Part shown: piece after piece, positions 4,302 through 59,901 of the stretch
Numbering within the stretch: position 1 is the stretch's first letter
Layout of the letters: every line of letters starts with the position of its first letter
Position numbers and translations under genes: made by a program
Assembly: GCA_043803225.1 (NCBI GenBank)
Contig: JAZDKF010000012.1
Location: 54,143 to 118,142, forward strand
Direction of reading: 5' to 3'
Length of the DNA: 64,000 bases
From: Candidatus Beckwithbacteria bacterium
GTDB taxonomy: Bacteria; Patescibacteriota; Microgenomatia; UBA1400; CG1-02-47-37
The notes under the pieces: model-generated
The model's input: the letters and a program-made list of their open reading frames with translations, nothing else
Told to the model about the DNA's origin: nothing
The model's database searches: none

Positions 4302-4489
4302 TTATCCCCCTTTTGTTTGTTAACTAACGGTTTAATTAGTAGTAGTTTTAGTAGGCGTTGTTGATAAGTGCATTATACAAGAATTTTTGTCTGTTTTCTT
4401 CTCTAAATATTCGCGTGCACAACCCCGAGGCGCTCTGTGGACAGACTTGTTGATAACTTGTGGATAATAACTTAACTTGTGGATAACTT
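4302..4489. promoter_or_regulatory. oriC segment (dnaA-dnaN intergenic): DnaA-box cluster plus AT-rich stretch
   Basis: Perfect TTATCCACA (as TGTGGATAA) at 4459-4467 and 4478-4486. One-mismatch boxes TGTTGATAA at 4448-4456 and ~4357-4365. A degenerate box CTGTCCACA (as TGTGGACAG) at ~4434-4442. AT-rich 'ttaattagtagtagttttag' at ~4331-4350 as a possible unwinding element. Confidence 0.7.
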
Positions 4490-44022: not shown

Positions 44023-44219
44023 TATTTATCTGCTTTAAAACCAATTTTAATATGGGAACCGTCGCAAAATGGCTTGTTCTTCGAAGCGCCGCAACGGCAC
44101 AACCAGACTGTTTCATCTCCCTTAACCGTTTGCTCATTGCCTTGAGCATCTTTGATTTCTTCCGGACCGTACACTTTATACGGTCCGTTTTTTATTGCTG
44201 TTATTTTGGCCATACCCAC
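44022..44219 (-). CDS. CDGSH iron-sulfur domain protein
   Basis: 65 aa, 'CRCGASKNKPFCDGSH'. Confidence 0.75.
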   Translation of the reverse strand: MGMAKITAIKNGPYKVYGPEEIKDAQGNEQTVKGDETVWLCRCGASKNKPFCDGSHIKIGFKADK

Positions 44220-44998
44220 TCCTTTATAAACAATTTTTTAACTGGTTGTCTATATTCTACCTCTCTTCCGCCGAAACTTTTTTTAAACCGGGTGAATCCG
44301 GGCCAGAGCTTATCGTCAATCCCATCAAAATCAAACAGTCTGCACTTAAGTTTTTTCGCCAATCTTATTGCCTTCCACGCTAATCTGCTGGGTACCATTT
44401 TTTTTCTGCCTTCCTGACTGCTGGCATTATGAGAATAATAGGCAACCTGATTATGAATTAAAACTATCAGTCCGCCGCCTTCTGCCATTAGCAGCCAGGC
44501 CTTTCCCCCAAACGATTTAAGCAAACTCTTTAATTGTTTAAAGTTTAATCCCCAGAATTTTTGTTTTTTACAGTTTTGCCGGTAAATCTTAAAAAAATCT
44601 TTCAGTTGTTTATCCGAAACTTTATCTCCCCGAATCATCTTTACTTTTCCTGAATACTTTCTTAAGTTATACCTGGTTTTGTAATGCATTTCTTTTAATA
44701 GCTGATTCTCGCTCTTTGTTAAATCCAGCCAAATAGTTTTTGTTGGTAGCATCGGTGTTTTATCTTCTTTAAACCCCCACCGGCCGTAGTTGAAATTATC
44801 ATCAATGGCTGGTTCAATCTTTACCAATACCGCCCGGTATTTTTTTACCAACAAATCTAAATCGTCGATTTTTTTCTGCCTCTGAATCTTAATAAAACTG
44901 ATTCCTAGCAGTTTTTTAATAAATGCCCCCTCATCCACCAGCCAGCCCAAACTTTTCATCCACAGCTCGTATTCTTTAGCTTGTCTTAAATCGCTCAT
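44201..44998 (-). CDS. FemAB-like / GNAT-fold peptidyltransferase family protein
   Basis: 265 aa, similarity in architecture to the C-half of FemX-type proteins. Adjacent to a clearer FemAB gene. Confidence 0.45.
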   Translation of the reverse strand: MSDLRQAKEYELWMKSLGWLVDEGAFIKKLLGISFIKIQRQKKIDDLDLLVKKYRAVLVKIEPAIDDNFNYGRWGFKEDKTPMLPTKTIWLDLTKSENQLLKEMHYKTRYNLRKYSGKVKMIRGDKVSDKQLKDFFKIYRQNCKKQKFWGLNFKQLKSLLKSFGGKAWLLMAEGGGLIVLIHNQVAYYSHNASSQEGRKKMVPSRLAWKAIRLAKKLKCRLFDFDGIDDKLWPGFTRFKKSFGGREVEYRQPVKKLFIKEWVWPK

Positions 44999-46098
44999 TT
45001 AGATTCAAATGCTCTTGCCAGATTGTCTATTGTTTGGCTTAGTCCGGTTTTCACTCGGACAGCTCCGGTCCTAGCCTTCAGCCACTTCCACCGCGCTTCT
45101 TCTAAGATTCTTAAAATCCGGTACTGCCCCGGCTGCAGTACTAGGTCATAACTGCCGACAAACTCCATCAAGGTTGCTCCGTAGCCTTGTTTAAACCGAT
45201 GAAATCCATACCAAGGATCATTTTTGTTTGGATTAGGCCCTAACGCTCCCCACATATCTAATTCAGTGCAATTTAAACTTTTCCCCAATTTAATTACTTC
45301 CCACATTAACAAATTTGGCGCCATCAGTTCTTTAAGCTCCCGGGTCGAGGCGCCGTATGGATAATAGATTTTTTTATTAAACACAAAACATAAAAAAGCT
45401 GACAAGGTTTTACCCTCAAACTCAGCCCTTAATAGTTGAACCATTCCCACCGGCCTTAGCTGCTGCCACATCTTTTTAAAGTAATCCGGAGTATGGCTAT
45501 AAAATCCCTGGCGTTTAATTGTTTCGTCAAACAGCAGTTTTAAAAATAACTCAAAACTCGCCGCGCTGTTGTCTAATTTAACCTTGACGCCTTTTTTTTC
45601 TGCCAGCCGCAAGTTATATCTGGTTTTGGAATGCATTTTAGCTAATAAATCTGCCTCTGCCGGTGTTAGATCAAGAGAAAAGGTGTATTTTGTAAACAGC
45701 GGTCGGCCTTTCTGGCAGCCCCTTTTAAGTAAAAACTCTTCTATTTGGATCCAGGCGCTGGATTGAATCTGATCTTTCTTAACCGCCGCGCTGATATTCG
45801 GCTCCAACTTAATATAAACGCAGTTATTTTCTTTTCCGATCTGTTTTAAAGCTTCCAGCTGGACCTCATCAGGCATCGGTCCTTTAGGAAAGTAGCCCAA
45901 AGTCCAACCGAGTTTTGGCACCCGGTGAATCGTCAGTTGCATTGGCATCACCAGCTTTTGGCCTTCAAATACCCCTTTGCGGATTACCTTTATTCCGGTT
46001 AACTCCCTAAACTCACCCCACTCATAGGTTTGCAGTGGGTGGCCGGCAACCTGATTAAACCTTGCTTTATCATTAAGAACGACTTCTCTAATAATCAT
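44995..46098 (-). CDS. FemAB family aminoacyl-tRNA-dependent peptidoglycan peptidyltransferase
   Basis: 367 aa. N-terminal 'QTYEWGEF', twin GNAT-like halves with a ~100-aa spacing typical of FemX/FemA. Confidence 0.6.
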   Translation of the reverse strand: MIIREVVLNDKARFNQVAGHPLQTYEWGEFRELTGIKVIRKGVFEGQKLVMPMQLTIHRVPKLGWTLGYFPKGPMPDEVQLEALKQIGKENNCVYIKLEPNISAAVKKDQIQSSAWIQIEEFLLKRGCQKGRPLFTKYTFSLDLTPAEADLLAKMHSKTRYNLRLAEKKGVKVKLDNSAASFELFLKLLFDETIKRQGFYSHTPDYFKKMWQQLRPVGMVQLLRAEFEGKTLSAFLCFVFNKKIYYPYGASTRELKELMAPNLLMWEVIKLGKSLNCTELDMWGALGPNPNKNDPWYGFHRFKQGYGATLMEFVGSYDLVLQPGQYRILRILEEARWKWLKARTGAVRVKTGLSQTIDNLARAFESK

Positions 46099-47851
46099 GG
46101 ATTAATTCTAGCAAACTTTCTTCAATATCGCCCAAGAACCGGCTGACCGCATTGCTGGCCGTGATGCCGAAATATAATCTTCTCCGGGAATAAGTTAGAA
46201 ATAAATTCTCCCTTGCCCTAGTCATTCCCACATAGCACAAACGCCTTTCTTCTTCTAACTCTTCCCGGTCCATTAATGATCGTGAATGGGGGAACAGTCC
46301 TTCTTCCATCCCGATTATAAATACATTTTTAAACTCCAAACCCTTTGAAGCGTGCAGGGTCATTAAAGTTACCGCCTTTTGATTGGCTTTTAACTTATCC
46401 GTTTCTTCCACCAAAGCCGTGTTTTGTAAAAACTCTTCCAGCACCGGATACATTTGCCCTACACTCATCAATTCCTTAATGTTTTCCAACCGGCTTAAGT
46501 CTTCCTCGTCTTTCAGATCAAACCGCTTTAAATATTCGGTTGTGTCCAGGATTAATTCTAAAGTCTCTTTAGTGGTTAACTTCACTCCGTCTAATTTTAC
46601 AAACTTTTCTAACTGCCTTTTGCCCAGCTTTTCTACTCTTTTATAACTTAAACGGTCTTTGGGGTTATAAATCAGCCTTAAATAAGCCAAGCAGTCTTTA
46701 ATTTCTTTCCGGTTATAAAATTTTACTCCGCCCACCAGAACATAGGGTATGTTTGCCTTAATTAAGGCCTCTTCAATGGTTCTTGATTGAGCGTTAGTCC
46801 GGTATAAAACGGCACAGTCTTGATAATCAAATTGACCGATAGTTTTTACCACAAACTCGGCTTCTTCTTTTTCATCTACTCCTTCAAAGATTTTAATTTT
46901 CGCTCCCTTTTGACTCTCTGCCCACAATTTTAATATCGGATGCAGGGTATTTTTGGCAATTACCTGGTTAGCTGCCTCTAAGATATTTTTTGTCGATCGG
47001 TAGTTTTGCTCCATGTTCACCACCACCAGTCCGGGAAAATCGTTTTTTAAATTATTTAAATTACGAAAATCAGCCCCGCGGAAACTGTAAATTGATTGGG
47101 AAAAATCGCCCACGGCGGTTAAATTCTTCCACTTTTTCGTCAGCAGTTTGGTCAGCTCATACTGGGCCCGGTTAGTATCCTGGTACTCGTCCACTAAAAC
47201 ACTTAAATATTTTTCCTGATATTTTTTAGCCACCCGGTCGCTGTGATTTAATAGTTTAACTGCTAGCAGCAGCAAGTCGTCAAAATCCAGAGCCTCATAT
47301 GTGGTCATCAGCCTTTGGTACTCCCGGTAAACCTGAGCGACTATCTCTGCCGCATTGCCTCTGATTAACCGGCTATACTCCCAATGGTTAATCAGTTCGT
47401 TTTTTGCCCCTGAAATCGCTGCCTTTATCACTCTTGGTTTATAGACTTGAGTGTCCAGGTTTAAATTTTTCATTGCCTGTTTTATCGTCGCCAGCGAATC
47501 ATCTTCGTCATAAATTAAAAACTTATTGCTCAGGCCGATTTCTTTGCCTTCAATTCGAAGCAGCCGGGCATTAAAACTATGAAAGGTTCCGGTCCAGGGT
47601 ATTGCCGCTGTTTTTTCTCCGAGAAGTTTTAAAATTCTACCCTTCATTTCCTTAGCCGCTTTATTGGTAAATGTGACTAATAAAATTCTTCCTGGATCTA
47701 CGCCTTTTTCTTTAATTAAATAGGCTGCCCGGTAAGTTAACGCCCGCGTTTTTCCTGATCCGGCTCCGGCCAGGATTAATAATGGGCCGTCGCCAAAGGT
47801 GACTGCCCGTCTTTGTTCTCGATTTAAGGCTTTCAGCCAATCTGCCGCCAT
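46088..47851 (-). CDS. pcrA: ATP-dependent DNA helicase UvrD/PcrA (short form)
   Basis: 'LAGAGSGKTRALT', 'DEYQDTN', 'GDFSQSIYSFRGA', 'NYRST', 'TLHASKGLEF', 'VGMTRA'. Confidence 0.9.
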   Translation of the reverse strand: MAADWLKALNREQRRAVTFGDGPLLILAGAGSGKTRALTYRAAYLIKEKGVDPGRILLVTFTNKAAKEMKGRILKLLGEKTAAIPWTGTFHSFNARLLRIEGKEIGLSNKFLIYDEDDSLATIKQAMKNLNLDTQVYKPRVIKAAISGAKNELINHWEYSRLIRGNAAEIVAQVYREYQRLMTTYEALDFDDLLLLAVKLLNHSDRVAKKYQEKYLSVLVDEYQDTNRAQYELTKLLTKKWKNLTAVGDFSQSIYSFRGADFRNLNNLKNDFPGLVVVNMEQNYRSTKNILEAANQVIAKNTLHPILKLWAESQKGAKIKIFEGVDEKEEAEFVVKTIGQFDYQDCAVLYRTNAQSRTIEEALIKANIPYVLVGGVKFYNRKEIKDCLAYLRLIYNPKDRLSYKRVEKLGKRQLEKFVKLDGVKLTTKETLELILDTTEYLKRFDLKDEEDLSRLENIKELMSVGQMYPVLEEFLQNTALVEETDKLKANQKAVTLMTLHASKGLEFKNVFIIGMEEGLFPHSRSLMDREELEEERRLCYVGMTRARENLFLTYSRRRLYFGITASNAVSRFLGDIEESLLELIHDY

Positions 47852-47871
47852 GTTAGAATCATAACATCTTT

Positions 47872-48906
47872 ATGCTTTCCGCCGTTAAACGCCGTTTCTA
47901 TAAATATCTTCTGCCTTTTCGCCCGTTAATCTATCTGGCAGTTATCGGTCTGGTCTGCTTAATTTTAGTTTTAATCATTCCTAAACTGGCCGCTTCTTTT
48001 AAAAAAATTATTCAACTTTCTACGATTACCCGGCTTGACTCTTTCCGCAATCGGACCAATATTCTGCTTCTTGGCGCCAGTGGCGGAACTCACCCCGGAG
48101 CTGATTTAACTGACAGCATCATGTTAATTTCAGTTAATCTTTCTACCTCAGATACGGTCTTAATTTCTCTGCCTCGGGACATTTGGGTTGAATCTTTATC
48201 TGCCAAACTTAATACTGCCTATCATTTTGGCGAAACCAAGCAGCCCGGCGGCGGCCTGATTATGGCTAAAGCCGCGGTTGCCGAAATCATCAACCAGCCG
48301 GTCCATTATGCTGCACTCTTGGATTTTTCCGGTTTTGAAACCGCCATCGACGTCCTTGGTGGTTTGGATCTGAATGTGCCCCATGGCTTTATCGACGCCA
48401 AGTATCCGCTTCCTGGCCAGGAAAATGCTCCCGATGAAACCGCCCGCTATGAAATCCTGCAGTTTCATTCTGGCTTTCAACACTTTGACGGTTCCATGGC
48501 CTTAAAATATGTTCGTTCCCGCCAGTCAGAAGGTGAAGAAGGGACTGATTTTGCCCGCAGCCAGCGTCAGCAATTGGTTTTGTTGAGTTTTAAAGATAAA
48601 GTTTTGTCTCTAAAAACTTTGCTTAATCCGTTTAAACTTAAAGCCCTCTATCAAGCTTTTAAAGCCGCTGTTACCACCGATCTTGAACCAAAAATCTATC
48701 CGGATTTAGTTAAGCTGGTTTTTAAAATTAAACCTGATTCGCTTCGTACAGGCATCATTGACCAGGGCAGTGACAACGAAGAAATTCCCGCCTTGCTCTA
48801 CAACCCGCCGGCCGAACAATACGGCCAATGGGTTTTATTGCCGCTTAATAACAACTGGCAGGCTGTTTATGATTACCTTGAAGAAATTATCTACCAAAAT
48901 CAATAG
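47872..48906 (+). CDS. LytR-CpsA-Psr (LCP) family cell-wall glycopolymer transferase
   Basis: N-terminal TM. 'ILLLGASGG...DSIMLISVN...ISLPRDIWV' LCP core. Confidence 0.8.
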   Translation: MLSAVKRRFYKYLLPFRPLIYLAVIGLVCLILVLIIPKLAASFKKIIQLSTITRLDSFRNRTNILLLGASGGTHPGADLTDSIMLISVNLSTSDTVLISLPRDIWVESLSAKLNTAYHFGETKQPGGGLIMAKAAVAEIINQPVHYAALLDFSGFETAIDVLGGLDLNVPHGFIDAKYPLPGQENAPDETARYEILQFHSGFQHFDGSMALKYVRSRQSEGEEGTDFARSQRQQLVLLSFKDKVLSLKTLLNPFKLKALYQAFKAAVTTDLEPKIYPDLVKLVFKIKPDSLRTGIIDQGSDNEEIPALLYNPPAEQYGQWVLLPLNNNWQAVYDYLEEIIYQNQ

Positions 48907-50122
48907 GCCAATACTAGTTCTAACCACTGTATTAGTTATATCGATTCTCTACTGGCAAGCACTTAATCCCTTATGGCGCGGCCATTTAGAAATTGATGTT
49001 TGGAGTTGGTTTCTGCGAATGGAATATTTTTTTAAACACAACTCTTTTACAGGTCTAGACGGCAATGAAATTCTTCCCACGACGCTTATTTATATTTTTA
49101 TCCCTCGCTTGTTAGCTGGCTGGAAAAATCTTTCTTATATTTCTTATCTTTCAGCTGCGACGTTAGTTAATTTATTGGTAATTTTTCTCACCCTCGTTGT
49201 AGTGAAAAAGAAATCATCTTCACTTCAATCTTGGCTATTTTTAATCTTAGTCTTAGCCATTGGCCCAATCCTTCTTTTTCGCTTTGACACAATCGTCGCC
49301 CTCTTCGTCCTTTTAAGCCTATATTTGTTTTCAAAAAAAAGAATAATCTCATCTGCTATTTTCTTAAGTTTGGCCACCTCCATGAAAATATATCCGATTA
49401 TTTTATTACCCTACCTGGGATTAATTCTTATGTATCAAAAAAGTTTTAAACGCATTTTAATTTACTTATTTTATTTTCTCCTATTTATGGCCTTGCCGAT
49501 AATAATATTTTTCCTTCTCGGTGGAAATCTTAAGCAAATTTTATCTGCTATGGAATTTCACGGTCTTAAATATGTTAGTATCGAAAGTCTGCCGGGAAGT
49601 TTATTAACCGCCTCTTCGCTGATTTTTAACCATCGCCCTCCAGATTTATTAGGGGGTTATGGAATTTGGGGAATTACTACGCCGCTGATTAAAACTCTTG
49701 GTCTAAAAGTTTTTAATTATTTTTGGGTTTTACCAGTTAGTTTTTTTTATCTCTTTATCATCAAAAACAGAAAATATCTAGCTAAACTTTATCCTTCAGT
49801 TTGTTTCTCATTGGTTTTATTCTTTCTAGTCTTTTCTAAAAATCTACACCCTCAATACATTTGGTGGTTTCTATCCATTTTTCCCTTTATTAAAATTACT
49901 GCCTTCAACCGCTATAAATATTTATTTATGTTTATTTTGTTGGTATTTATCAGTATTTTCAACCAATTAGTTTATCCGTTGTTTTACACTCAGTTTATAG
50001 ACGATTTTTTCCAGCATAATCGTTACTATGAAGTTTTTTACGCCCTTTTAATTAGAAACTTTTTAATTGTTTGTCTATTAATAGTTAGTTTGAAAAATGA
50101 ATTTCCTAAAAAAACACTTTAA
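48869..50122 (+). CDS. polytopic membrane protein, GT-C-like (DUF2029/GT87-like) glycosyltransferase, putative
   Basis: At least 10 TM helices, low-GC. Start uncertain (the track ORF begins at 48758 inside the LCP gene; 48869 ATG chosen). Confidence 0.45.
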   Translation: MITLKKLSTKINRPILVLTTVLVISILYWQALNPLWRGHLEIDVWSWFLRMEYFFKHNSFTGLDGNEILPTTLIYIFIPRLLAGWKNLSYISYLSAATLVNLLVIFLTLVVVKKKSSSLQSWLFLILVLAIGPILLFRFDTIVALFVLLSLYLFSKKRIISSAIFLSLATSMKIYPIILLPYLGLILMYQKSFKRILIYLFYFLLFMALPIIIFFLLGGNLKQILSAMEFHGLKYVSIESLPGSLLTASSLIFNHRPPDLLGGYGIWGITTPLIKTLGLKVFNYFWVLPVSFFYLFIIKNRKYLAKLYPSVCFSLVLFFLVFSKNLHPQYIWWFLSIFPFIKITAFNRYKYLFMFILLVFISIFNQLVYPLFYTQFIDDFFQHNRYYEVFYALLIRNFLIVCLLIVSLKNEFPKKTL

Positions 50123-51332
50123 TTTAAAAACACTAATTCTTTTAGTGTTTATTTTACGATCAGCGCTTTCTTTGTTGCCGCCAATGGCCATCGATCAAAG
50201 TTGTTGGCGTGCCTGGAGCCAAAGACTGGTTGACTTAGGCCCCGCCGAATTTTATTCAGAAACTGTGTTTACCGCTAACCCTCCTGGCTTTCTTTATGTT
50301 TTTTGGCTGCTGGGAGAAATTAAAAATAGTTTATTCCCTCAAATATCTTTTTCTTCTTCCGGCTATGACTGGTTCCTTAAACTGCCCAATAATCTGGCCG
50401 ATATTGCTGCCGGGGTGCTTATTTACCTGTTAATTAAGACAAAAAGGGGAATCGGCATAGCCAAACTTGGGTTTCTTCTTTACACCCTAAATCCAATAAC
50501 TTGGTTTAACTCATCAGTTTATGGCCAATTTGATGGCTCAGCTGCATTTTTTGGTTTACTCGCAGTGTACTTATTATTAACTAAGCGAAAACTATCCTTG
50601 TCTGCTGCTGTTTTCGCCCTCGCCTGGGCCATAAAACCGCAATTGATTGCTTTGGCTCCGGCTTTGGGATTATTAGCTATCTTTCGCTTTAAGCCAATTG
50701 ATTGGTTTAAAGCCGCCTTAGCCTTTATATCAACCACCTTAATAATCTACTGGCCGTTTTTCCCCGGAAATCCTGTTAAGGGGATAATCTCTGTTTTTCA
50801 GCAAATGGCCAACCTTTACTCTTGCGCTTCCTGTTTTACTTTTAATTTCTGGGGTCTTTGGGGCAATTGGTTCCCCGATACCACTGTATTGCTTGGTCTA
50901 TCGTTTATGTCTTGGGGGATTATTCTTGTCGGCTTGAATCTGATTGTTGTCTTGTTGCTTAAACCGCTTAAACTTCGCTATCGTTTACCCTATCTTTACC
51001 TTACTATTGCGATCTCAATTTTATCCTTTAATATGTTGGTTACCCGAATGCACGAGCGTTATGTTTTTCCCTTTTTTGCCTTTTTCCTTTTAGCTGCCAT
51101 TCTCATGAAATCAAGACTGTTATTTGTTTTTTATCTGATTTTTTCTATTTTTAATACCTTTAATGTTTACTATCCTTACTCTTATTACAATCCGGATTTT
51201 CACTTAACCCCGGCTTTAATTAACTGGCTTAATCAAAACTTTCAGTTGCTGTCCGTAATTGGCTTAGCTATTTATTTGATATTATTAACTCACTTTTTAA
51301 TTACTTTAAAAAGATTAAGAAAAAAATCATGA
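50097..51332 (+). CDS. polytopic membrane protein, GT-C-like glycosyltransferase, putative
   Basis: 411 aa, at least 10 TM helices. Same operon, overlapping starts and stops. Confidence 0.45.
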   Translation: MNFLKKHFNLKTLILLVFILRSALSLLPPMAIDQSCWRAWSQRLVDLGPAEFYSETVFTANPPGFLYVFWLLGEIKNSLFPQISFSSSGYDWFLKLPNNLADIAAGVLIYLLIKTKRGIGIAKLGFLLYTLNPITWFNSSVYGQFDGSAAFFGLLAVYLLLTKRKLSLSAAVFALAWAIKPQLIALAPALGLLAIFRFKPIDWFKAALAFISTTLIIYWPFFPGNPVKGIISVFQQMANLYSCASCFTFNFWGLWGNWFPDTTVLLGLSFMSWGIILVGLNLIVVLLLKPLKLRYRLPYLYLTIAISILSFNMLVTRMHERYVFPFFAFFLLAAILMKSRLLFVFYLIFSIFNTFNVYYPYSYYNPDFHLTPALINWLNQNFQLLSVIGLAIYLILLTHFLITLKRLRKKS

Positions 51333-52501
51333 AACAAAATCACCTTAAACTGCTGTTTCTTCTCTTTATTATTTCTATTTTCTTCCGCACTTTTCGTCTT
51401 TCACAGCCAAAGGCCTATGTTTTTGACGAGGTTTATCATACTTTTACCGCCCAGGAAATGGCCAAAGGGAACCAGCATGCCTGGGAATGGTGGGTTCCTT
51501 CACCGCCTGGGGTAGCTTATGAATGGACTCATCCGCCTTTAGCTAAACTGGCCATGGCCGGATCAATCAGCTTATTGGGTGATCGTAGTTTTGCCTGGCG
51601 TTTTCCCAGTGCGGTTTTCGGCACCTTATCAGTTGCCGTAGTTTATTTTATTGGTAAACAATTATTTAAAAACAATCATCTCGCTCTTTTAGCCGCCGCG
51701 ATTTTTAGTTTTGACGGCCTGCAATTAACTATGTCTCGAGTCGGCATGGCCGACAGCCTTTTAACCCTATTAATGCTTCTGGCCTGTTTATTTTTTTATC
51801 AGTCAAAATTCCGCTTAACCGGAATTTTTCTGGGATTAGCTTTAGCCACCAAATGGTCAGCTGTTTTGCTGTATCCGGTCTTTGGTATCTTATTATTGCC
51901 TAAAATAATTAAAAATACCCAGAAAGTTAAGTTTTTCTTCCAGCTGGCTTATAGCTTTTTGCTTACGCCTTTAGTAATTTATTTTTTAACCTTTATTCCT
52001 TTTTTTAATACCGGACATACTTTAGCTCAGTGGTGGGAACTGCAAAGACAAATGTATTATTATCACTCCCACTTAAACGCCACTCATCAGTACCAATCAA
52101 TGGCTTGGCAGTGGCCGCTTCTTGTCCGGCCGGTTTGGTTTTATGTGGATTATGCGAAAAATTCAATTGCTAATATTTATAATCTCGGCAACCCGGCAAT
52201 TTTCTGGGGCGGGTTAGTCGCTTTATTTTTTAGCCGCAATTTTACTTTATTAATCTCTTACTTTCTCCTTTTTTTCCCTTTTGTCTTTTCTCCCCGGATT
52301 ATGTTTTTACACCACTATCTGCCTGCTTTGCCGTTTTTGTGTCTGATTATTGCCCAGGCAATTTATCAGCATAAATTACTGGCAAAGTATTACCTCCTAT
52401 TAGTTATCCTGTTATTTTTATTCTTCTATCCCCTTAATACTGCCATTTCTTTACCGGTGAATTTAGTTAAATATTGGTTTTGGCTGCCAACTTGGAAGTA
52501 A
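51329..52501 (+). CDS. protein O-mannosyltransferase-like GT39 (PMT family)
   Basis: First-loop 'YVFDEVYHTFTAQE' (DE motif of PMT/GT39). Polytopic. Confidence 0.7.
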   Translation: MKQNHLKLLFLLFIISIFFRTFRLSQPKAYVFDEVYHTFTAQEMAKGNQHAWEWWVPSPPGVAYEWTHPPLAKLAMAGSISLLGDRSFAWRFPSAVFGTLSVAVVYFIGKQLFKNNHLALLAAAIFSFDGLQLTMSRVGMADSLLTLLMLLACLFFYQSKFRLTGIFLGLALATKWSAVLLYPVFGILLLPKIIKNTQKVKFFFQLAYSFLLTPLVIYFLTFIPFFNTGHTLAQWWELQRQMYYYHSHLNATHQYQSMAWQWPLLVRPVWFYVDYAKNSIANIYNLGNPAIFWGGLVALFFSRNFTLLISYFLLFFPFVFSPRIMFLHHYLPALPFLCLIIAQAIYQHKLLAKYYLLLVILLFLFFYPLNTAISLPVNLVKYWFWLPTWK

Positions 52502-52506
52502 GTAAA

Positions 52507-53211
52507 ATGAAACAATTTAAACAATTATCAATATTTTTTCCTGCGTTCAACGAAGAGTTTGTGATTCAGAAAACAATCGCTGCTGCAATCAAGGTCGCCC
52601 GGGAAGTTGCCGAAACTTATGAGATTATCGTGATTAACGACGGTTCAACTGACAGAACCGGGGAGATGATTGAAGCCATGATCAGCCGCAATCCTAGCAT
52701 TAGACTTATCTCTCACCCTATTAATCAGGGTTATGGCGCGGCGATAAAATCTGGCCTTGCGGCCGTCCGTTATCCGTGGGTAATTGCCTGTGATTCTGAC
52801 GGCCAGTTTGATTTAACCGAAATAAAAAAATTTACTCCCTATATGAACAACCACGATTTAATTATTGGTTATCGTTTAAAAAGGAGCGACAGCCGCTATC
52901 GTCGCTTCATGGCATTTATTCTGAAACTGGTTAACTTAATCTTGTTTAAAATAAATTTTAAAGATATTGATTGCGGCTTTAAGTTGTTTAAAAAAGAAGT
53001 GATTGCCGCGGTGGGCCCCCTAGCTACTAATAGTGCCATTACTGTTACCGAATTTATTGCTAAATCCCTTCATCAGGGTTTTAAGATTAAAGAAATTGGC
53101 GTCCACCATCATAGCCGTTCTGGTGGTCAACAAACCGGAGGTAAGCCTTCAGTGGTTATTAAAGGCGCCAAAGAAGCGATTAGGCTTTGGTTAAAACAAC
53201 AGCGCCCCTAA
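52507..53211 (+). CDS. polyprenol-phosphate mannose/glucose synthase (Dpm1-like GT2)
   Basis: 'LSIFFPAFNEE...IIVINDGSTDRTGE...IACDSDGQFD' GT2 DXD architecture of Dpm1/GtrB type. Confidence 0.8.
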   Translation: MKQFKQLSIFFPAFNEEFVIQKTIAAAIKVAREVAETYEIIVINDGSTDRTGEMIEAMISRNPSIRLISHPINQGYGAAIKSGLAAVRYPWVIACDSDGQFDLTEIKKFTPYMNNHDLIIGYRLKRSDSRYRRFMAFILKLVNLILFKINFKDIDCGFKLFKKEVIAAVGPLATNSAITVTEFIAKSLHQGFKIKEIGVHHHSRSGGQQTGGKPSVVIKGAKEAIRLWLKQQRP

Positions 53212-53883
53212 GATTAACAGCAGTCCGATTGAAACTCCTAAAACTACGCCGGTAGTGCTGCCTGCCTGGGGCAGTTCCGGCTGGCCGCCTTTAGTCTGCG
53301 CCACTAAAGTTGGCGAAGGCATTGTTCCGCCTTTAGCTATTGATGAAGGCGAGGGGGATAATAAGCCTGTGGGACAACTGCAGTCTGTTTCTTCGCTGCA
53401 GTTGGGATTAACACAGCGCTTATCGCTTCCTACGGTCAGACATCTTAAATTATCGCTGCATTCACTGTCATTCTCGCATTCATCAAAACAGCCGATTAGT
53501 TGAGGCGAAGCCGATGGTGATGGGGAAGGCGAAAGGCTCGGACTTGGTGAAGGCGACCCAGACGGGCTGGGACTCGGACTTGGGGAAGGTGACGGTGAAG
53601 GCGACCCCGATGGGCTCGGCGAAAGGCTCGGACTTGGTGAAGGTGAACCCCCCACTGTAAAACTTAACTCGCAAACTCCTTCGGTTTTGACTTCTTCAAC
53701 CGGCACGGTTTGAGGCTTAGTTGTTGGTTTAGGCGTTGGTGCCGGTGTTGGTTTTTTTAACTGGAAGAACAGGACTATGGCCGTAATCAGCAGAATTGCG
53801 GTAAATCCCAGCAAGCCCCACAACAGCCACTTTTTGTCTTTTTTGGTATTAGCAATAGTAGTATTAGTGTTTATCTGTTCCAT
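53191..53883 (-). CDS. membrane-anchored Cys-module protein with (SP)n repeat tract and C-terminal LPQAG-hydrophobic tail
   Basis: N-terminal TM. 'SPSPSPSLSPSPSGSPSPSPSPSPSPSPSGSPSPSPSLSPSPSPSASP'. Cys module 'CVNPNCSEETDCSCP'. C-terminus 'LPQAGSTTGVVLGVSIGLLLILGALLF'. Confidence 0.6.
   Translation of the reverse strand: MEQINTNTTIANTKKDKKWLLWGLLGFTAILLITAIVLFFQLKKPTPAPTPKPTTKPQTVPVEEVKTEGVCELSFTVGGSPSPSPSLSPSPSGSPSPSPSPSPSPSPSGSPSPSPSLSPSPSPSASPQLIGCFDECENDSECSDNLRCLTVGSDKRCVNPNCSEETDCSCPTGLLSPSPSSIAKGGTMPSPTLVAQTKGGQPELPQAGSTTGVVLGVSIGLLLILGALLF
53490..53650. repeat. short imperfect tandem repeats (GGNGAAGGNGA-type hexamer/12-mer units) encoding the (SP)n tract
   Basis: Visible periodicity 'ggcgaaggcga..ggtgaaggcgac..ggggaaggtgacggtgaaggcgacc'. 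Confidence 0.5.
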
Positions 53884-55085
53884 CTTAAATCCCCTGGCAC
53901 CCCAGGCTGTTGAGATATATTAGCTTTGCCCCACTCAGTGCAGTAAGTTTTAGAGCTGCTCCAGCAGACCCGGCACTGGACTGTCCAAATACCGCTTTGA
54001 TTAATAACCATTTGCTTGCTGGCTTTATTATTCATAGTTGCATAAGACATATTGATTGGGTAAGCAGTTGGATCTTCGATATACTCGGCTGTTCCGACTT
54101 TATGCCTAAAATATGCTACCGGCCCCGGCACTATGGAAAAATTCATTCCCTCACAGGTAAATGTGACCGTGTCATTTAACTGCGGTGCCGCCACGTCTTT
54201 GGTTAAACTCACACAGGTTAAGGGAGGGGAGTACGGCGGCTCTGACGGGCTTGGCGACGGGCTTGTTCCTGCTGATGGGCTCGGGCTACTAGCCGAGCCG
54301 CAATTACAATCAGGGTCTTGAGGGCATTGAGGGTTAACGCAGACATTATTTATACATGACGATCCTTGGCAAGTCCACTGATATATACCATCTATATTTA
54401 CCATACATGATTCGCCACACAAGCGAGGAGGTATTGTCGATGCTGATGCTGACGGCGACGGCGACGATGATGCTGACGGCGATGGCGATGCTGACGGCTC
54501 CGGTTCTGATGATTGCAACGGCGTCCCTGAACAATCATCAGTCAGGTTTACTGGTTCATCAGTGTTTGGCATCTGACAGTAAACACCATTATTATCAAGC
54601 GGATCAATCTGCCCGCACTCATTGGTTCCCAATGACAAACTTCCGCAGTTAGCTGTTGGACCATAATAGGCATTGTCGTCTTTTTCATCACAAAAGCCGT
54701 CTTCGTGAGTATCACCAGTAGGACAATAAATAATTACACAGTTGCCACTAAAGGAGGCGCCAGCGGTATTTATACAGTTAGTCCCCACTTGCGCACTAAT
54801 CGCTGCTTTTTTCTCTACCCTTGTTTGTTCCCCAATTGACTTCACTCCCAGCATCACTCCGCCCACAATTAACGCTAACATCAGCAACCCGCCAACCAAT
54901 TTTAAACCCTTCTTTTTAACAGTTTTTCCAAATTGGTGTGTCGGTTTGGTTATAATTGGTTCTTCTTTAGGCACTGGGGGGATTGGGGTTAATGGCGGAA
55001 TCGGGGACACTGGTGGAGTTGGCGGCACAGGCGGTGGTGGTGTTGGTGGGATTGGGGGCGGGGGCTGCAGGCCAAAGTTATCCAT
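53871..55085 (-). CDS. membrane-anchored poly-Pro / Cys-module / Ser-Pro repeat protein (paralog of the downstream gene)
   Basis: N-terminal 'PPPPIPPTPPPPVPPTPPVSPIPP', TM, then about 30 Cys including 'CVNPQCPQDPDCNCG', interleaved with 'SASPSPSASSSPSPSAS' and 'SPSPSAGTSPSPSPS'. Confidence 0.6.
   Translation of the reverse strand: MDNFGLQPPPPIPPTPPPPVPPTPPVSPIPPLTPIPPVPKEEPIITKPTHQFGKTVKKKGLKLVGGLLMLALIVGGVMLGVKSIGEQTRVEKKAAISAQVGTNCINTAGASFSGNCVIIYCPTGDTHEDGFCDEKDDNAYYGPTANCGSLSLGTNECGQIDPLDNNGVYCQMPNTDEPVNLTDDCSGTPLQSSEPEPSASPSPSASSSPSPSASASTIPPRLCGESCMVNIDGIYQWTCQGSSCINNVCVNPQCPQDPDCNCGSASSPSPSAGTSPSPSPSEPPYSPPLTCVSLTKDVAAPQLNDTVTFTCEGMNFSIVPGPVAYFRHKVGTAEYIEDPTAYPINMSYATMNNKASKQMVINQSGIWTVQCRVCWSSSKTYCTEWGKANISQQPGVPGDLRWNR
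54438..54500. repeat. short tandem repeats (GCTGAYGGCGAY units) encoding SASPSPS tract
   Basis: 'gatgctgatgctgacggcgacggcgacgatgatgctgacggcgatggcgatgctgacggc'. Confidence 0.5.
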
Positions 55086-55103
55086 ATATATGTTTATCTA
55101 TAT

Positions 55104-56429
55104 TTATACACTTTTTTTTAATTTCCAGCCACCGATTAATAAACCAATGCCGGTTAAAATCATCAGCAAGGTCACTTCAAACGTTCCCGGACTAGGCACG
55201 CCGGCATCAGTTGCCGGCATTGACGTTCTTTCTCCTGACGGTGTCGCTGTAATTGCCGGAACGGTTGTTTCTCCGGCTTGGGCAATCACAAAATTTCGAG
55301 ATAAAGTTTGTTCTTCCCCCTGGCTGTCAATATAGCTGATGGTGACTGAATGTTCTCCCGGCTCCAGTCCTGACGGCGGCGTAAACTCCCAGTTGCCGTC
55401 TTCATCGATTGTCGCTGAACCGGTAAAAGTTTCGGGCGAATTAATCTCGATTGCCAAAACTATTCCGCTTGGACCGGTTCCCATAAAGGCCGGTTGGGTG
55501 GCATTAATCACTTCGCCTTCAAACGACGGATTATCTAAAGTCACCTCGCCGCTTTCAGTAGCCACTTCGGAAATCAGCGGATTTAAAGCTTCAAACCCGC
55601 TCTTTTCCGCCACTTGTCCGCCCGGGCTGGCGGTCAGCGATTCGGTTGTCTCCGTTGGGTTAGGCAAACTGGCCACTCTAAAGTCAGCTGACTTGCCCAA
55701 AGTAATATCTGGCACCGGACTGTCATTGGCAGTCGTGGTAATTGCCGAAGCCGTTCCTTGCTGTCCGCCCTGGACTAATAAATTTACAATTGTTGCTTGG
55801 GTGTCATAGGTTAGATAACCGCCCAAATCTATAGTTCTGGCCGTCGCCAGCGATAAGGCCCAGCTGCCTTGGTTTTTTACTAAAGCCGATAAAGGCGCGC
55901 CATTGGCCACGTTAATATAGACCACCACTGCTTCTGCCGGGGTGCCGGCTTGGGACAAGATTGTGCCGTAAATCGGATCTGCCGCCGGCGGATTGCCTAA
56001 GGTAGCTCCGGTGGTTATTTCAAACGGCTTGCCTTTATTATCATACTGTTTATTATTTGACTCGATCTTAAAATAATACTTGGTTTGCGGAGTTAAATTT
56101 TTAGCTGTGACATGGTGGACTTCTGTGCTGACTGCTCCGCCCGACAATTGATCCCGGTCATCTAAAACCGTTTGTTTTAAATCTGTCGGCTGCATGCCCA
56201 GTTTAATTGAGCCGGTGCTGGTTTTCCCGGTAATCCAGGAAACCGAAAAACCCGTGTCGCTGACATTAGTAATTCTGACTTGTTCCGGCGTGCTGGCAGT
56301 TTCGGTTTTCGGTTGTACTCCGCTTCTGGTTTTAAACCAAAAAATTCCCGCCCCGATAAATAGAAATAACAGCAATAAGCCTAATGCCGTGGGGAAGTGA
56401 ATTTTATTGACTTTATTTTTTTGCATCAT
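55104..56429 (-). CDS. cell-surface protein with FN3-like and Ig-like domains, N-terminal signal anchor and C-terminal TM plus basic tail
   Basis: 'VRITNVSDTGFSVSWITGK...YYFKIESNN' FN3 pattern. C-terminus 'TLLMILTGIGLLIGGWKLKKSV'. Confidence 0.55.
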   Translation of the reverse strand: MMQKNKVNKIHFPTALGLLLLFLFIGAGIFWFKTRSGVQPKTETASTPEQVRITNVSDTGFSVSWITGKTSTGSIKLGMQPTDLKQTVLDDRDQLSGGAVSTEVHHVTAKNLTPQTKYYFKIESNNKQYDNKGKPFEITTGATLGNPPAADPIYGTILSQAGTPAEAVVVYINVANGAPLSALVKNQGSWALSLATARTIDLGGYLTYDTQATIVNLLVQGGQQGTASAITTTANDSPVPDITLGKSADFRVASLPNPTETTESLTASPGGQVAEKSGFEALNPLISEVATESGEVTLDNPSFEGEVINATQPAFMGTGPSGIVLAIEINSPETFTGSATIDEDGNWEFTPPSGLEPGEHSVTISYIDSQGEEQTLSRNFVIAQAGETTVPAITATPSGERTSMPATDAGVPSPGTFEVTLLMILTGIGLLIGGWKLKKSV

Positions 56430-56433
56430 AACT

Positions 56434-56772
56434 TTATTCCTGTTGTCCGCTTGGGCTAGCTTCAGCGCTTTGGCTTGCCTCGCCCTGCGGGCTGCTGACC
56501 GGCGGCACCAGTAAAACTGCCGGCTGGGCCGGTTTCAGACTGTCCCAATCAGCGCTGGGAACTGCTTCCCTCCGGCTGATCATTTTCATTGTGTCAAGAT
56601 CTAGGGTTGACGTCAAGGGTGTTAGTAGTTTTTTTACCTCCGGCCTAATTTGGCTCTTGGTAAAAGCTTTATAAGTAACCATTCCTAGCCAGACTATGGT
56701 AGTTATGATTGTTAACACCGCCAGTTTGAAAAAATCTTTTTTAAACCTTTGTTCGAAGCGTTCACTGATCAT
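56434..56772 (-). CDS. small membrane protein in pilN/pilO operon (PilP-like position)
   Basis: 112 aa, one TM, Pro/Ser-rich tail. Confidence 0.4.
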   Translation of the reverse strand: MISERFEQRFKKDFFKLAVLTIITTIVWLGMVTYKAFTKSQIRPEVKKLLTPLTSTLDLDTMKMISRREAVPSADWDSLKPAQPAVLLVPPVSSPQGEASQSAEASPSGQQE

Positions 56773-57407
56773 TATTGCCCTCCTGTTAGGGGTAAATAAA
56801 ACCCGGCCAGCTTTAAATTAACGGTAAGTTTGTTGGAAATCTTCGAATTTTTATTGCTCAAACTTAAATCAACAATCGTCAGCAGCCGGTCAATTGCCGC
56901 AATTTTGGTGACAAAGTTTTTTACCTGCTGGTAATTGCCGCTTATAGTTAAGTTTACTGTCAACTCCACCGGCTTGCCTGGCTCTGCTCTTTGGTTTAAT
57001 AAATTAAATTCACCCAAACTGCCTGAGGTAATTTCTACTCCAGCCTGTTGAGCCACCCAGTAAATCTGCCAGACTAATCTTTCAAACCTTTCTGATTCTG
57101 GCAACACTTCTTTAATTTCCGGTAAATTGTTAACAATGGCAGCAAAGTTAGTTTCCGCCGCCTTCAAGCTGACAATCTTTTGGGTCAGCTTGCTGTCAAC
57201 CGTTTCCTGATCGCTGATTTCCCTGTTAAGCGTCGCAATGGTTCTAGAGGTAGGTAGAATCGCTACCATCAGAAAAAAAGCAATCGTAAAAACAGTTAAA
57301 CTGGCCAGGCCGGATACTCTTACATCTGGTTTCTGGGTCCAAAGTTTAAAACGCTTGTAGTATCGGTCATAGTTTCTGGCGATGGTTAATCTTTGATTTA
57401 AGCTCAT
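56772..57407 (-). CDS. pilO: type IV pilus assembly protein PilO-like
   Basis: 211 aa. Cytoplasmic N-terminus, TM 'LASLTVFTIAFFLMVAIL', coiled coil, C-terminal alpha/beta domain. Overlaps pilN by 4 nt. Confidence 0.55.
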   Translation of the reverse strand: MSLNQRLTIARNYDRYYKRFKLWTQKPDVRVSGLASLTVFTIAFFLMVAILPTSRTIATLNREISDQETVDSKLTQKIVSLKAAETNFAAIVNNLPEIKEVLPESERFERLVWQIYWVAQQAGVEITSGSLGEFNLLNQRAEPGKPVELTVNLTISGNYQQVKNFVTKIAAIDRLLTIVDLSLSNKNSKISNKLTVNLKLAGFYLPLTGGQ

Positions 57408-57973
57408 TTGTTTTTATACTCTAAGGTCATTTTAAAAATAATTCCGCTGATGTTGCTCTTGCTTGAATCAACACTTTCTAGAGAAACTCCGCTGAACTTT
57501 TGGCTTTCTTGGGCTTTACTTAGCAAGGTCGCCAAGCCTGTTTCTGACAGCACCACGCCCTGCAATCCCACCTCTTCATTATTAATCGTAATCGAGTCAT
57601 AAATCGCGTCCATAGGAGTAATCAAGCTTAATTCATCTAAAACTTCGGTTACCTTAAGACTTTCTGTTTCAGCGGTTTTAACCACCTCCAGCTGTTGTTG
57701 AACCTGTCTGAATTTCGCTTCAAAATCACCAAAGCTTACTACCACCGCCACTTTTTGTTTAATTTTTTCGTTTAAATCAGTCAGTTTTCGGTCTAGGGAA
57801 AACCTGAACAGAAAAGCCAAAATCACCGCCAACTCTACAAACACCACTACATATTTGCCGACTGTCAGCACCCACTTGACTAACTTACCCAGCAAGCCTA
57901 CTTCCCACGGATCTTTTGGTAATAAATTAATTTCTTTACGCTCTTTTTTCCGGGCAGGCATACTTAAGTTCAA
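57404..57973 (-). CDS. pilN: type IV pilus assembly protein PilN
   Basis: N-terminal 'EINLLPKD' (the PilN INLLP PilM-binding motif), TM, coiled coil. Confidence 0.7.
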   Translation of the reverse strand: MNLSMPARKKERKEINLLPKDPWEVGLLGKLVKWVLTVGKYVVVFVELAVILAFLFRFSLDRKLTDLNEKIKQKVAVVVSFGDFEAKFRQVQQQLEVVKTAETESLKVTEVLDELSLITPMDAIYDSITINNEEVGLQGVVLSETGLATLLSKAQESQKFSGVSLESVDSSKSNISGIIFKMTLEYKNK

Positions 57974-57980
57974 GTATATA

Positions 57981-58229
57981 TTATTTCTTTTTCGTCTGCT
58001 TCTTCAGTCTCATTAATCTGGACTTAAGCCTGGATGCCTTATTTTTATGAATGACTTTTTTCTTGGCGGCTTTATCTAAAGCCGAATAAGCCGCGGTTAT
58101 GGTTTTAGCCGTTTTTTCTTTTCTGGCGAGTTTTACTGCTAGGCGTAATTTTTCCCGGTAAAGATTATTTACCTGAGTTCTTTTTTTATCCTGCTTTAAT
58201 TTTTTTATGGCTGACTTAAGTATAGGCAT
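57981..58229 (-). CDS. rpsT: 30S ribosomal protein S20
   Basis: 82 aa, 'ILKSAIKKLKQDKKRTQVNNLYREKLR' S20 pattern. Confidence 0.85.
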   Translation of the reverse strand: MPILKSAIKKLKQDKKRTQVNNLYREKLRLAVKLARKEKTAKTITAAYSALDKAAKKKVIHKNKASRLKSRLMRLKKQTKKK

Positions 58230-58266
58230 GGTCTGTATTCTATATATTTGTTATACTCGCGTCAAG

Positions 58267-59901
58267 ATGGTTAGTACAATATTAAATCGCGGCCAAAGCT
58301 TGTTTAACCGGCGCCAGAGTAGCACCCTTTCTGCTGCCAGCATCTTAATGGCGGCGGTGTTTTTATCTAGGATTTTAGGTCTGCTCCGCGACCGGTTTTT
58401 AGCCGGCGCCTTTTTTGATGCCACTACATCCTGGCAGCTGGATATCTACTTTGCCGCCTTTCGGCTTCCCGATATGATTTTTCAGCTTCTGGTAGTCGGC
58501 GCTCTTTCGGCTGCTTTTATTCCGGTTTTTTCTAAGTATTTATTTAAAAAACAAACTGAGGCTTGGCATATTGCCTCTAGTGTTATTACCATTGGTCTGG
58601 TTTTATTTCTTATCCTGGGTTCGGTCTTGGCGATTTTTAGTCTGCCTTTAAGCCGTTTAATTGCCCCTTCGTTTACCCCTGCCAATCTGCAGTTAATGGC
58701 CAATTTAACCCGGGTCTTAATTCTGGCCCAGGCTTTTTTCTTAATCTCTAACTTTTTAACCGGAATTTTACAATCGCATCACTACTTTTTAGTTCCAGCC
58801 TTAGCCCCGGTCGCTTATAACTTAGGCATTATCTTCGGCACAGTTTGTTTAAGCCCGATTTTAGGGATTTACGGTCCGGCTGTCGGCGTTATTCTTGGTG
58901 CCTTTCTTCATTTTTTAGTTCAAGTGCCTTTAACTAAAAGTCTCGGCTTTCGCTATCAGCCAATTATTGACCTTCATCACCCCGGTGTTCGCCGCATTGG
59001 CCGCTTAATGCTGCCGCGGGCGATTGCCTTAGCTGTCAGCCAGATTGAACTGACCGTGGCGGTGTTCTTGGCCACTTCTTTGCCTGCCGGTTCTTTGGCC
59101 ATCTTTTACTTTGCCCAACATTTAAATGCTCTGCCGGTGGGTTTATTTGGCGCCACTATCGGTCAGGCCGCTCTGCCAAGCTTAGCCCAAAACTTTTCCG
59201 TTAAGTCTTTTCTGGCTTCCTTAAACCAAGTTCTTTATTTAAGTCTTCCCGCTGGCATGATTCTTTTAATTCTTCGGCTGCCGATTGTCCGCTTGGCTTT
59301 TGGTACTAAAAACTTTCCTTGGCAAGCCACTCTTTTAACTGGTCAAGCCGTCGCTTTGTTTGCCGTCTCCGTTTTTGCCCAGGCCGCTATTCAAATTTTA
59401 GTTCGCGGCTTTTACGCTCTGTCAAACACCCGCACTCCGCTTTATTTGGCCGCAGTGGCCGTCTTTACCAACGTAGCTTTAAGCTTTGTTTTTGTTTATT
59501 CTTTTGGCTTAGGAATTTTAGGCTTAGCCTTAGCCTTGTCTATTGCCAGCTTTATCCACTCTGGCCTGCTGCTTTTCTTTCTCGCCCGCCAAGTCAATGG
59601 CTTTCCCCGGCCCGACCTGCTTATTCCTTTTATCAAAATGTCTTTTGCTGCTTTAATTACCGGCTTTAGTCTTTGGGTGCCCTTGCGCCTTCTAGACCGC
59701 TATATCTTAAACACCACCAAAACCTTAGATTTGATTATCCTTAGTTTAATTACCGGCTTGATTGGTTTTAGTGTTTACTTACTGCTATCTAAACTATTAA
59801 AAATTAAAGAATTGGACAGTTTTCTTGGGTTAATAAAACGATTTTTGCACTTGCCCAAACTTTTATCTCAAACCGACCAGATCCTTAATAATGAACTCTA
59901 A
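58267..59901 (+). CDS. murJ: lipid II flippase MurJ
   Basis: 'AASILMAAVFLSRILGLLRDRFLAGAF...' MurJ/MviN N-terminus, 14 TM. Start set at MVSTIL (ATG 58267). Confidence 0.85.
   Translation: MVSTILNRGQSLFNRRQSSTLSAASILMAAVFLSRILGLLRDRFLAGAFFDATTSWQLDIYFAAFRLPDMIFQLLVVGALSAAFIPVFSKYLFKKQTEAWHIASSVITIGLVLFLILGSVLAIFSLPLSRLIAPSFTPANLQLMANLTRVLILAQAFFLISNFLTGILQSHHYFLVPALAPVAYNLGIIFGTVCLSPILGIYGPAVGVILGAFLHFLVQVPLTKSLGFRYQPIIDLHHPGVRRIGRLMLPRAIALAVSQIELTVAVFLATSLPAGSLAIFYFAQHLNALPVGLFGATIGQAALPSLAQNFSVKSFLASLNQVLYLSLPAGMILLILRLPIVRLAFGTKNFPWQATLLTGQAVALFAVSVFAQAAIQILVRGFYALSNTRTPLYLAAVAVFTNVALSFVFVYSFGLGILGLALALSIASFIHSGLLLFFLARQVNGFPRPDLLIPFIKMSFAALITGFSLWVPLRLLDRYILNTTKTLDLIILSLITGLIGFSVYLLLSKLLKIKELDSFLGLIKRFLHLPKLLSQTDQILNNEL

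Follow-up and report, generated by a model that had tools for sequence, protein, structure and literature searches.

The window considered here, that is, the whole 64-kb stretch of DNA that was analysed, belongs to a metagenome-assembled genome (MAG) of a Candidatus Beckwithbacteria bacterium, class Microgenomatia, within the Patescibacteria or Candidate Phyla Radiation (CPR). It contains a pilN-pilO gene pair that is separated from pilM and lies in a compact minus-strand row of seven genes (58229-53191, from the listing of open reading frames, ORFs): rpsT, pilN, pilO, a small gene, the gene of a stalk-like protein and two genes called here X and Y. The first gene of the operon, rpsT (57981..58229, on the minus strand as the whole row), encodes ribosomal protein S20 (82 amino acids, aa), which passes both Ribosomal_S20p (PF01649; 57.9 bits, cut-off 29.5) and the TIGR00029 equivalog model (62.6 bits, cut-off 33). 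It is followed by pilN (57404..57973; PF05137), which codes for 189 aa from a TTG start or 185 aa from the ATG at 57961, and by pilO (56772..57407; PF04350), which codes for a bitopic protein of 211 aa. The small gene (56434..56772) encodes a lineage-specific bitopic protein of 112 aa, recognised by alignment of its orthologues, and the stalk gene (55104..56429) a protein of 441 aa described here from Pfam matches and an AlphaFold2 (AF2) model. X (53871..55085, 404 aa) and Y (53191..53883, 230 aa) extend the operon past the stalk gene with further surface-protein genes, Y being the last one and convergent with a GT2 gene. The PilO, 112-aa and 441-aa proteins are identical to the database entries MFH0942773.1, MFH0942772.1 (V1810_01220) and MFH0942771.1, respectively, from a contig of 183,468 bp. 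The first of them is labelled by NCBI as 'type 4a pilus biogenesis protein PilO', and the stalk protein is currently labelled only as 'Ig-like domain-containing protein'.

The genes of the row are tightly packed. pilN and pilO overlap by 4 nucleotides (nt), pilO and the small gene share one base, the gap between the small gene and the stalk gene is 4 nt and that between rpsT and pilN is 7-19 nt; in independent gene calls of related loci the start and stop codons also overlap or abut. No terminator-like site was seen between rpsT and pilN, and no RNA element was found by Rfam in 52800-58700. A sigma-70-like promoter candidate (TTGACG-17-TAGAAT, minus strand, 58237..58265) is located upstream of rpsT, within the intergenic region that separates it from the divergent murJ gene (58207..59901, plus strand), a lipid II flippase homologue whose orthologues carry PF03023 (MurJ). 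The candidate agrees with the consensus at 10 of 12 positions and is the top minus-strand site in 52800-58700, a consensus match being no proof of function. Judging from this layout, pilN, pilO, the small gene and the stalk gene would be co-transcribed and are probably translationally coupled. Related to this region, the longest murJ ORF, starting at 58207, overlaps the first rpsT codons on the opposite strand and has the rpsT promoter candidate inside it (58207-58267), so the real murJ start is probably downstream of 58207.

PilN matches the Pfam PilN family (PF05137) with 33.7 bits (cut-off 22.8) over residues 111-184, which correspond to the C-terminal ferredoxin-like domain, and its profile matches the PilN chain of Myxococcus xanthus in PDB entry 3jc8 (E=4e-5 to 9e-5). 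The protein consists of a short cytoplasmic N-terminus carrying the INLLP motif, one transmembrane (TM) helix, a coiled coil and the C-terminal PilN domain; it begins MPARKKERKEINLLPKDPWE, followed by the TM segment. The peptide EINLLPKD corresponds to residues 14-21 of the TTG-start ORF, and the ATG at 57961 is the likely true start because the orthologues begin with MPA..K.EINLLP. This cytoplasmic N-terminus, [KE]-I-N-L-L-P-K-[DE]-P-[WF], belongs to the most conserved stretches of PilN and is kept in most orthologues, one orthologue clade having IEF[IL]P in place of INLLP. PilO scores 53.3 bits against the Pfam PilO family (PF04350; cut-off 22) and matches M. xanthus PilO (3jc8) over residues 16-192, near its full length, with E=1e-7 (phmmer against the PDB). 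Weak matches to GspM also appeared among the profile searches (Pfam and NCBIfam). The assignment of both proteins as ordinary members of their respective families seems sound on these matches. The first-pass annotation, made from the letters alone, had named the upstream gene as S20, recognised PilN by its INLLP motif and taken the ORF at 56772-57407 as PilO; all three identities score above the profile cut-offs, and the ORF positions agree as well.

A further feature of PilN is a Glu residue (..FTEL..) in its TM helix (57800-57870), kept in more than 90% of 22 aligned orthologues. An acidic residue of this kind is unusual within a single-pass anchor, and it could be the place where PilN touches the small protein or the stalk protein within the membrane.

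The conservation of the row was analysed by means of a PilN alignment search, which yielded 33 loci from one-genome-per-species contigs and 76 metagenome loci, 109 in total. ORFs were called in these loci and compared with the reference proteins, and the denominators given below count the loci that are long enough to be judged. Since the scan pattern was the family-specific PilN N-terminal motif, the 109 loci sample this orthologous group and not any second canonical pilN. PilO follows PilN in 85/87 loci, the small gene is present in all 71 loci and the stalk gene in 46 of 47. Directly upstream of pilN there is rpsT in 43/63 loci and a co-directional murJ in 15/63; murJ is divergent, with no rpsT between, in two of the 63, and something else stands there in the remaining three. 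Altogether, murJ adjoins the module in 60 of the 63 loci with enough upstream sequence, and one inversion of the murJ-rpsT pair is all that separates the two main layouts. The order pilN-pilO-small-stalk holds at PilN identities down to about 30%, and also in loci from which rpsT and murJ have been lost (L012, L032 and L073). Searches that started from the stalk protein gave 253 homologues with identities of 40-79%, and on long contigs (among them GCA_026397255.1, a 777-kb JGI contig and a 233-kb contig) these lie in the same gene row with murJ divergent; the stalk on the 233-kb contig is only 41% identical to that of the window and the row is still kept. lepA, hrcA and a GH39 gene are further conserved neighbours. 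The split arrangement next to rpsT and murJ is confirmed as a real, lineage-wide feature of Microgenomatia. As for the database records of these loci (L007-L039), many are titled 'uncultured Pseudomonadales', 'uncultured Gammaproteobacteria' or 'Candidatus Bathyarchaeia archaeon' despite their Microgenomatia gene row, and they look mislabelled or mis-binned.

Neither pilM, nor a GspE-type ATPase motif, nor a prepilin motif was seen in the 64-kb window by gene reading and motif scan. Likewise, none of the 109 loci showed a pilM-like gene, GspE-type Walker A motif or prepilin motif within 10 kb, and PilB/PilT, PilC, PilD, pilins and PilM are all missing from the window and from the ±10-kb flanks of the related loci. 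The gaps at the rpsT-pilN or murJ-pilN junctions are of 7-45 nt, with no PilM-size ORF in between, and these junctions recur in independent assemblies (NCBI, JGI, ENA and Logan), including contigs of 0.3-1.3 Mb. A PilM-PilN fusion was also considered. The PilN family comprises 926 clusters by phmmer against 1.84 billion representatives (551 of them at E<=1e-10), and no fusion exists among the best 150 of the 926 family representatives because their lengths are only 102-255 aa. The idea that the missing pilM is an assembly or gene-calling artefact, or that the gene is hidden in or fused to a neighbouring ORF, can be practically discarded given the same junctions in 109 independent loci, the lack of any PilM-size ORF and the lack of long fusions among those 150 representatives. 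The first-pass annotation had stated that pilM is not in the operon, and the search for an adjacent or fused pilM, or for an assembly error, bore this out.

Published genomes provide a context for this absence. In the complete genome of Ch65, which belongs to the same order as Beckwithbacteria (UBA1400), a single locus is reported to hold PilA, minor pilins, PilD, PilB, PilT, PilC and PilM, and neither PilN nor PilO is listed in it (PMC7143001). The PilM, PilN and PilO families occur widely across the CPR, which lack PilQ (PMC6744442); the earlier description of the organism as a monoderm without a secretin is consistent with this, no secretin being expected. PilM is known from characterised systems to grip PilN by its short N-terminus (PMC5285504; PMC7613929, citing PDB 2YCH). 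The strong conservation of the PilN cytoplasmic N-terminus therefore argues for a conserved cytoplasmic partner, which in the studied systems is PilM, and PilM may act in trans from another locus.

The stalk protein contains a Pur_ac_phosph_N/fn3 domain at residues 46-140 and a Big_13 domain at residues 306-381; the Pfam scores are 43.4 bits for PF16656 (cut-off 30), 29.8 bits for PF00041 (cut-off 25) and 45.2 bits for PF19077 (cut-off 27). Its AF2 model, built from a 45-sequence alignment, has a mean predicted local distance difference test (pLDDT) score of 79.8. According to this model, a conserved HFPTALGL motif comes before the N-terminal TM helix (14-37), which leads to an FN3 sandwich (49-140) that packs on a second beta-sandwich (150-250). 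A disordered linker, the Ig-like Big_13 sandwich (296-382), a second linker and a C-terminal TM helix (417-440) with a KLKKSV end complete the chain, and the three beta-sandwiches have pLDDT values above 90. The C-terminal region thus reads RTSMPATDAGVPSPG, the TM segment and KLKKSV. An FN3-like N-domain, an Ig-like C-domain and a C-terminal TM with a basic tail had been recognised before, and both Pfam and the model agree with that description; the middle beta-sandwich is an additional domain. No specific fold could be assigned by Foldseek against the PDB, whose only matches were tandem FN3/Ig stalks of a generic kind, from adhesins and S-layer proteins. The N-terminus looks less like a signal peptide than like an anchor that is conserved and not cleaved.

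In near relatives the stalk protein is 72% identical to that of the window, compared with 64% for PilN and 49% for PilO; in distant relatives the values are 35-40%, 33-40% and 26-31%, respectively, the stalk being similar to MurJ. The stalk is therefore more likely to be a structural partner than a fast-evolving adhesin. The 441-aa protein had been proposed as either a pilus-associated adhesin or an accessory of the alignment complex, and the second option fits better in view of a conservation above that of PilN and PilO and of its presence in 46/47 loci.

Regarding the C-terminal tail of the stalk, close relatives share the signature R-T-x-[MLQ]-P-[AS]-T-x-x-G-[VI]-P-x-[PS]-G, followed by the TM segment and basic residues. 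The window protein has VPSPG with MPAT before it, and the corresponding site reads LPKAG, LPTVG, VPDSG or LPVSG in distant orthologues. The orthologue with LPKAG scores 14.1 bits against TIGR01167 (LPXTG_anchor), under the cut-off of 15.9, and the tail of an orthologue with VPEPG gives only sub-threshold PEP-CTERM-like matches. We call this tail a conserved element with the appearance of a sorting signal. The earlier statement that it is not LPXTG holds literally for the window protein, but the tail is still sorting-signal-like, with LPKAG and related motifs in its orthologues. The PxT..G[VI]PxxG tail is confined to stalk orthologues within about 1 Mb of related DNA, so nothing was found there that would make it a shared sorting signal. 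Within the sequence read (the window and the related loci), a sortase gene was seen only in locus L003, about 7 kb away. As a separate observation, locus L081 (Ga0265292_1000005) has an extra stalk-like paralogue outside the module whose LPATG tail, alone among those scored, passes TIGR01167 with 20.2 bits.

The 112-aa protein encoded between pilO and the stalk gene contains a conserved Trp in its TM helix, then an extracytoplasmic PL(N/T)PxLD motif that is likewise conserved, and a low-complexity tail, as deduced from the alignment of its orthologues. The protein itself has no match in Pfam or NCBIfam, and in 20 orthologues neither PilP (PF04351) at E<=1 nor any other meaningful Pfam match was detected. 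A profile search of the family against the PDB gave no match, and the protein has no lipobox, its N-terminus being a TM anchor. The AF2 model, obtained from a shallow alignment of three sequences, shows a helix (2-41) and low-confidence coil in the rest, with no beta-sandwich. PilP was thus rejected as its identity. The first-pass annotation had placed the protein in the PilP position; this is right as to its place in the gene order, and equivalence to PilP is not upheld by the orthologues, the PDB profile search or the model. The protein is 'PilP-like' only by that place, because there is no Pfam or PDB match and the model consists of helix and coil.

The two genes that close the operon also encode surface proteins. 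X shows a conserved MDNxGLQP start, a Pro-rich N-terminus, a TM segment, Cys-rich modules, Ser/Pro linkers and a conserved C-terminal domain, and it has no match in Pfam. Y has an N-terminal TM segment, an SPSPSP linker, a Cys-rich module and an LPQAG motif with a hydrophobic C-terminus; its tail reaches 15.2 bits against TIGR01167 (LPXTG_anchor), just under the cut-off of 15.9. Many related loci have X-like and Y-like genes after the stalk gene. The row is found in a dense neighbourhood of envelope genes (44201-53211 and 58207-59901), which includes two FemAB-family genes, an LCP (LytR-CpsA-Psr) gene, two large polytopic membrane proteins, a PMT-family mannosyltransferase, the GT2 glycosyltransferase and murJ, and much of this neighbourhood is kept in related loci. 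The Ser/Pro linkers of X and Y, encoded near the PMT and GT2 genes, may hint at O-glycosylated wall proteins.

The module can be compared with several known systems. In the type IVa pilus (T4aP) alignment complex PilM-PilN-PilO-PilP(-PilQ) of Pseudomonas aeruginosa and M. xanthus (3jc8/3jc9), the PilN and PilO proteins are homologous to those described here, the best PDB matches being those of M. xanthus; the INLLP peptide for the PilM clamp is the same, and envelope genes also come right after pilO in the operon. Unlike that complex, here the operon has no pilM, nor has any of the 109 loci one within 10 kb, and there is neither PilP (a lipoprotein with a beta-sandwich HR domain) nor a secretin. 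In their place come a small bitopic protein, unrelated to these, and a stalk with FN3, sandwich and Ig domains and a sorting-like tail, and rpsT or murJ heads the operon. PilP and the AMIN domains of PilQ tie PilMNOP of P. aeruginosa to septal peptidoglycan (PMC5285504). A closer case is that of Nanosynbacter lyticus TM7x, whose two pilus loci (1 and 2) come from another member of the Patescibacteria with a monoderm-like envelope, no PilQ and a PilN/PilO membrane scaffold (PMC12206443). In Saccharibacteria pilM-pilN-pilO are contiguous, and in the TM7x loci pilB and pilC are found in the same loci (PMC12206443), whereas in Microgenomatia pilN and pilO are detached and the small gene and the stalk gene have been gained.

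Similarities can also be found outside the pili. GspL and GspM, which belong to the T2SS (type II secretion system), are relatives of PilM plus PilN and of PilO, respectively, and GspC is a bitopic outward extension of the platform. GspL-GspM-GspC follows the same logic of a scaffold pair with a bitopic outward connector, although the stalk has no HR or PDZ domain, no secretin goes with it and it shows no sequence relation to GspC. On the other hand, the stalk shares with sortase-anchored Gram-positive proteins a tripartite C-terminus made of a Pro/Gly motif, a TM segment and Lys/Arg residues; the difference is that the window stalk fails LPXTG_anchor and that its N-terminus resembles an uncleaved anchor and not a signal peptide. 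No description of a pilN-pilO-small-stalk module was found in the searched literature, and the lineage-wide split from pilM, the two recruited partner genes and the fixed place at rpsT/murJ are apparently undescribed.

The explanation that we consider somewhat more probable than its negation is that the module represents a relocated pilus PilN-PilO alignment pair, served by PilM in trans, together with two lineage-specific envelope partners that may tie the pair to the cell wall. According to it, pilN and pilO would have moved off from pilM and the other pilus genes to a place beside rpsT and murJ, where their co-transcribed partners would be the small bitopic protein and the stalk of about 445 aa with its three beta-sandwich domains. 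The four proteins, all N-terminally anchored in the membrane with their bulk outside, would form a single scaffold by contacts between their TM and juxtamembrane parts. PilM, encoded elsewhere with pilB, pilT and pilC, would clamp the cytoplasmic INLLP peptide of PilN in trans. The stalk would span the wall, and its C-terminal tail would either stay in the membrane or be cleaved by a sortase-like enzyme that joins it to the wall. In this way, the stalk could give a secretin-less monoderm the wall link that PilP-PilQ, through AMIN domains, give diderms.

Two other explanations have to be weighed against this relocated alignment pair. A PilN/PilO-like pair could have been co-opted for a non-pilus scaffold dedicated to peptidoglycan, a surface layer or division, its PilN peptide being bound by another actin-like protein, for instance FtsA, and not by PilM. 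We regard this as rather unlikely, even if murJ adjoins the module so regularly, in 15 loci directly upstream and co-directional, and the other neighbours in the window serve wall biogenesis; in addition, the interdomain cleft in which PilM holds PilN has its counterpart in FtsA, where it takes up the N-terminal peptide of the bitopic FtsN (PMC7613929). The murJ linkage may be plain ancestral gene order, however, since lepA, hrcA and GH39 are conserved as well and the layouts are one inversion apart, and profile scores place the two proteins with PilN and PilO and not with the divisome. Moreover, CPR genomes seldom keep paralogous machines; the small size of these genomes and the Ch65 pilus locus, with PilM and without PilN/PilO, therefore suggest that the detached pair corresponds to the pilus copies. 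The other explanation accepts PilN and PilO as an ordinary pilus scaffold and takes the small protein, the stalk, X and Y as surface or wall proteins that are merely co-transcribed from a strong rpsT promoter. The likeness of the stalk to generic multi-FN3/Ig adhesin and S-layer stalks, together with the variable Cys-rich proteins with LPxAG-type tails encoded downstream by X and Y, speaks for it. Nevertheless, it is doubtful that co-expression is all there is: the gene order holds to about 30% PilN identity even in loci devoid of rpsT and murJ, the overlapping or abutting coding regions suggest coupled translation, the stalk evolves more slowly than PilN and PilO, which is not the behaviour of adhesins, and its N-terminal TM segment bears a conserved motif that would be unusual for a mere signal peptide.

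Several observations weigh against the relocated alignment pair with its wall partners. The genes that surround pilN-pilO belong to cell-wall biogenesis (murJ, FemAB, LCP, PMT and glycosyltransferases) and not to the pilus, and none of the 109 loci has a pilus gene within 10 kb, which also speaks for co-option. A sizeable minority of the PilN family representatives have S, A, L, E or G at the Pro position of INLLP, a loss that likewise favours co-option. One locus, L114 (9615-13104), retains pilN-pilO-small-X-Y and has no stalk gene, which would rather agree with mere co-expression. When ten tails were compared with the LPXTG, PEP-CTERM, PGF-CTERM and other sorting-domain models of NCBIfam, the tail of the window stalk matched none of them. 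Finally, PilM acting in trans and the supposed lack of a second canonical pilN/pilO pair are drawn from one literature description and from parsimony, and what suggests the association of the small and stalk proteins with PilN and PilO is synteny.

A more far-reaching proposal is that the module constitutes a lineage-specific wall-spanning base, in which the stalk is anchored in the membrane by its N-terminus and has its tail fixed covalently or firmly in peptidoglycan, its installation being coupled to the export of lipid II by MurJ. We hold this to be quite improbable. In a stronger version of it, the module would be independent of PilM and would work with the wall-synthesis or division machinery.

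Apart from the module, two further features of the window can be mentioned. The GC skew is negative throughout (1-64000), with no flip at dnaA/dnaN (3174-5905); C-enrichment of one strand has already been published for the genomes of Beckwithbacteria, Collierbacteria and Ch65 (PMC7143001), and the skew of the window matches it. Just beyond dnaN, on the minus strand (126-2331), there are two adjacent paralogous ORFs of 324 and 412 aa, of unassigned function, which share the C-terminal pattern ..GISHLV.LF.RKT.LP.WKL.ILPE..GGTRKVKP.DVEMMV.TP...

Type IV pili are thought to be central to host attachment and DNA uptake in the ultrasmall CPR bacteria, and we know of no account of how a pilus machine crosses a monoderm-type wall without a secretin. 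A slowly evolving stalk that is genetically tied to pilN-pilO, together with the small protein, are candidates for the missing envelope part of CPR pili. If the wall-spanning proposal were true, the module would be a monoderm answer to the problem of threading a pilus machine through the wall and fixing it there, comparable with that of PilP-PilQ and their AMIN domains in diderms. The split between pilM and pilN-pilO also offers a natural test of whether the alignment complex needs the co-translation of its parts. For those who annotate these genomes, it means that the pilN and pilO genes of Microgenomatia would be missed if the main pilus locus alone were inspected.

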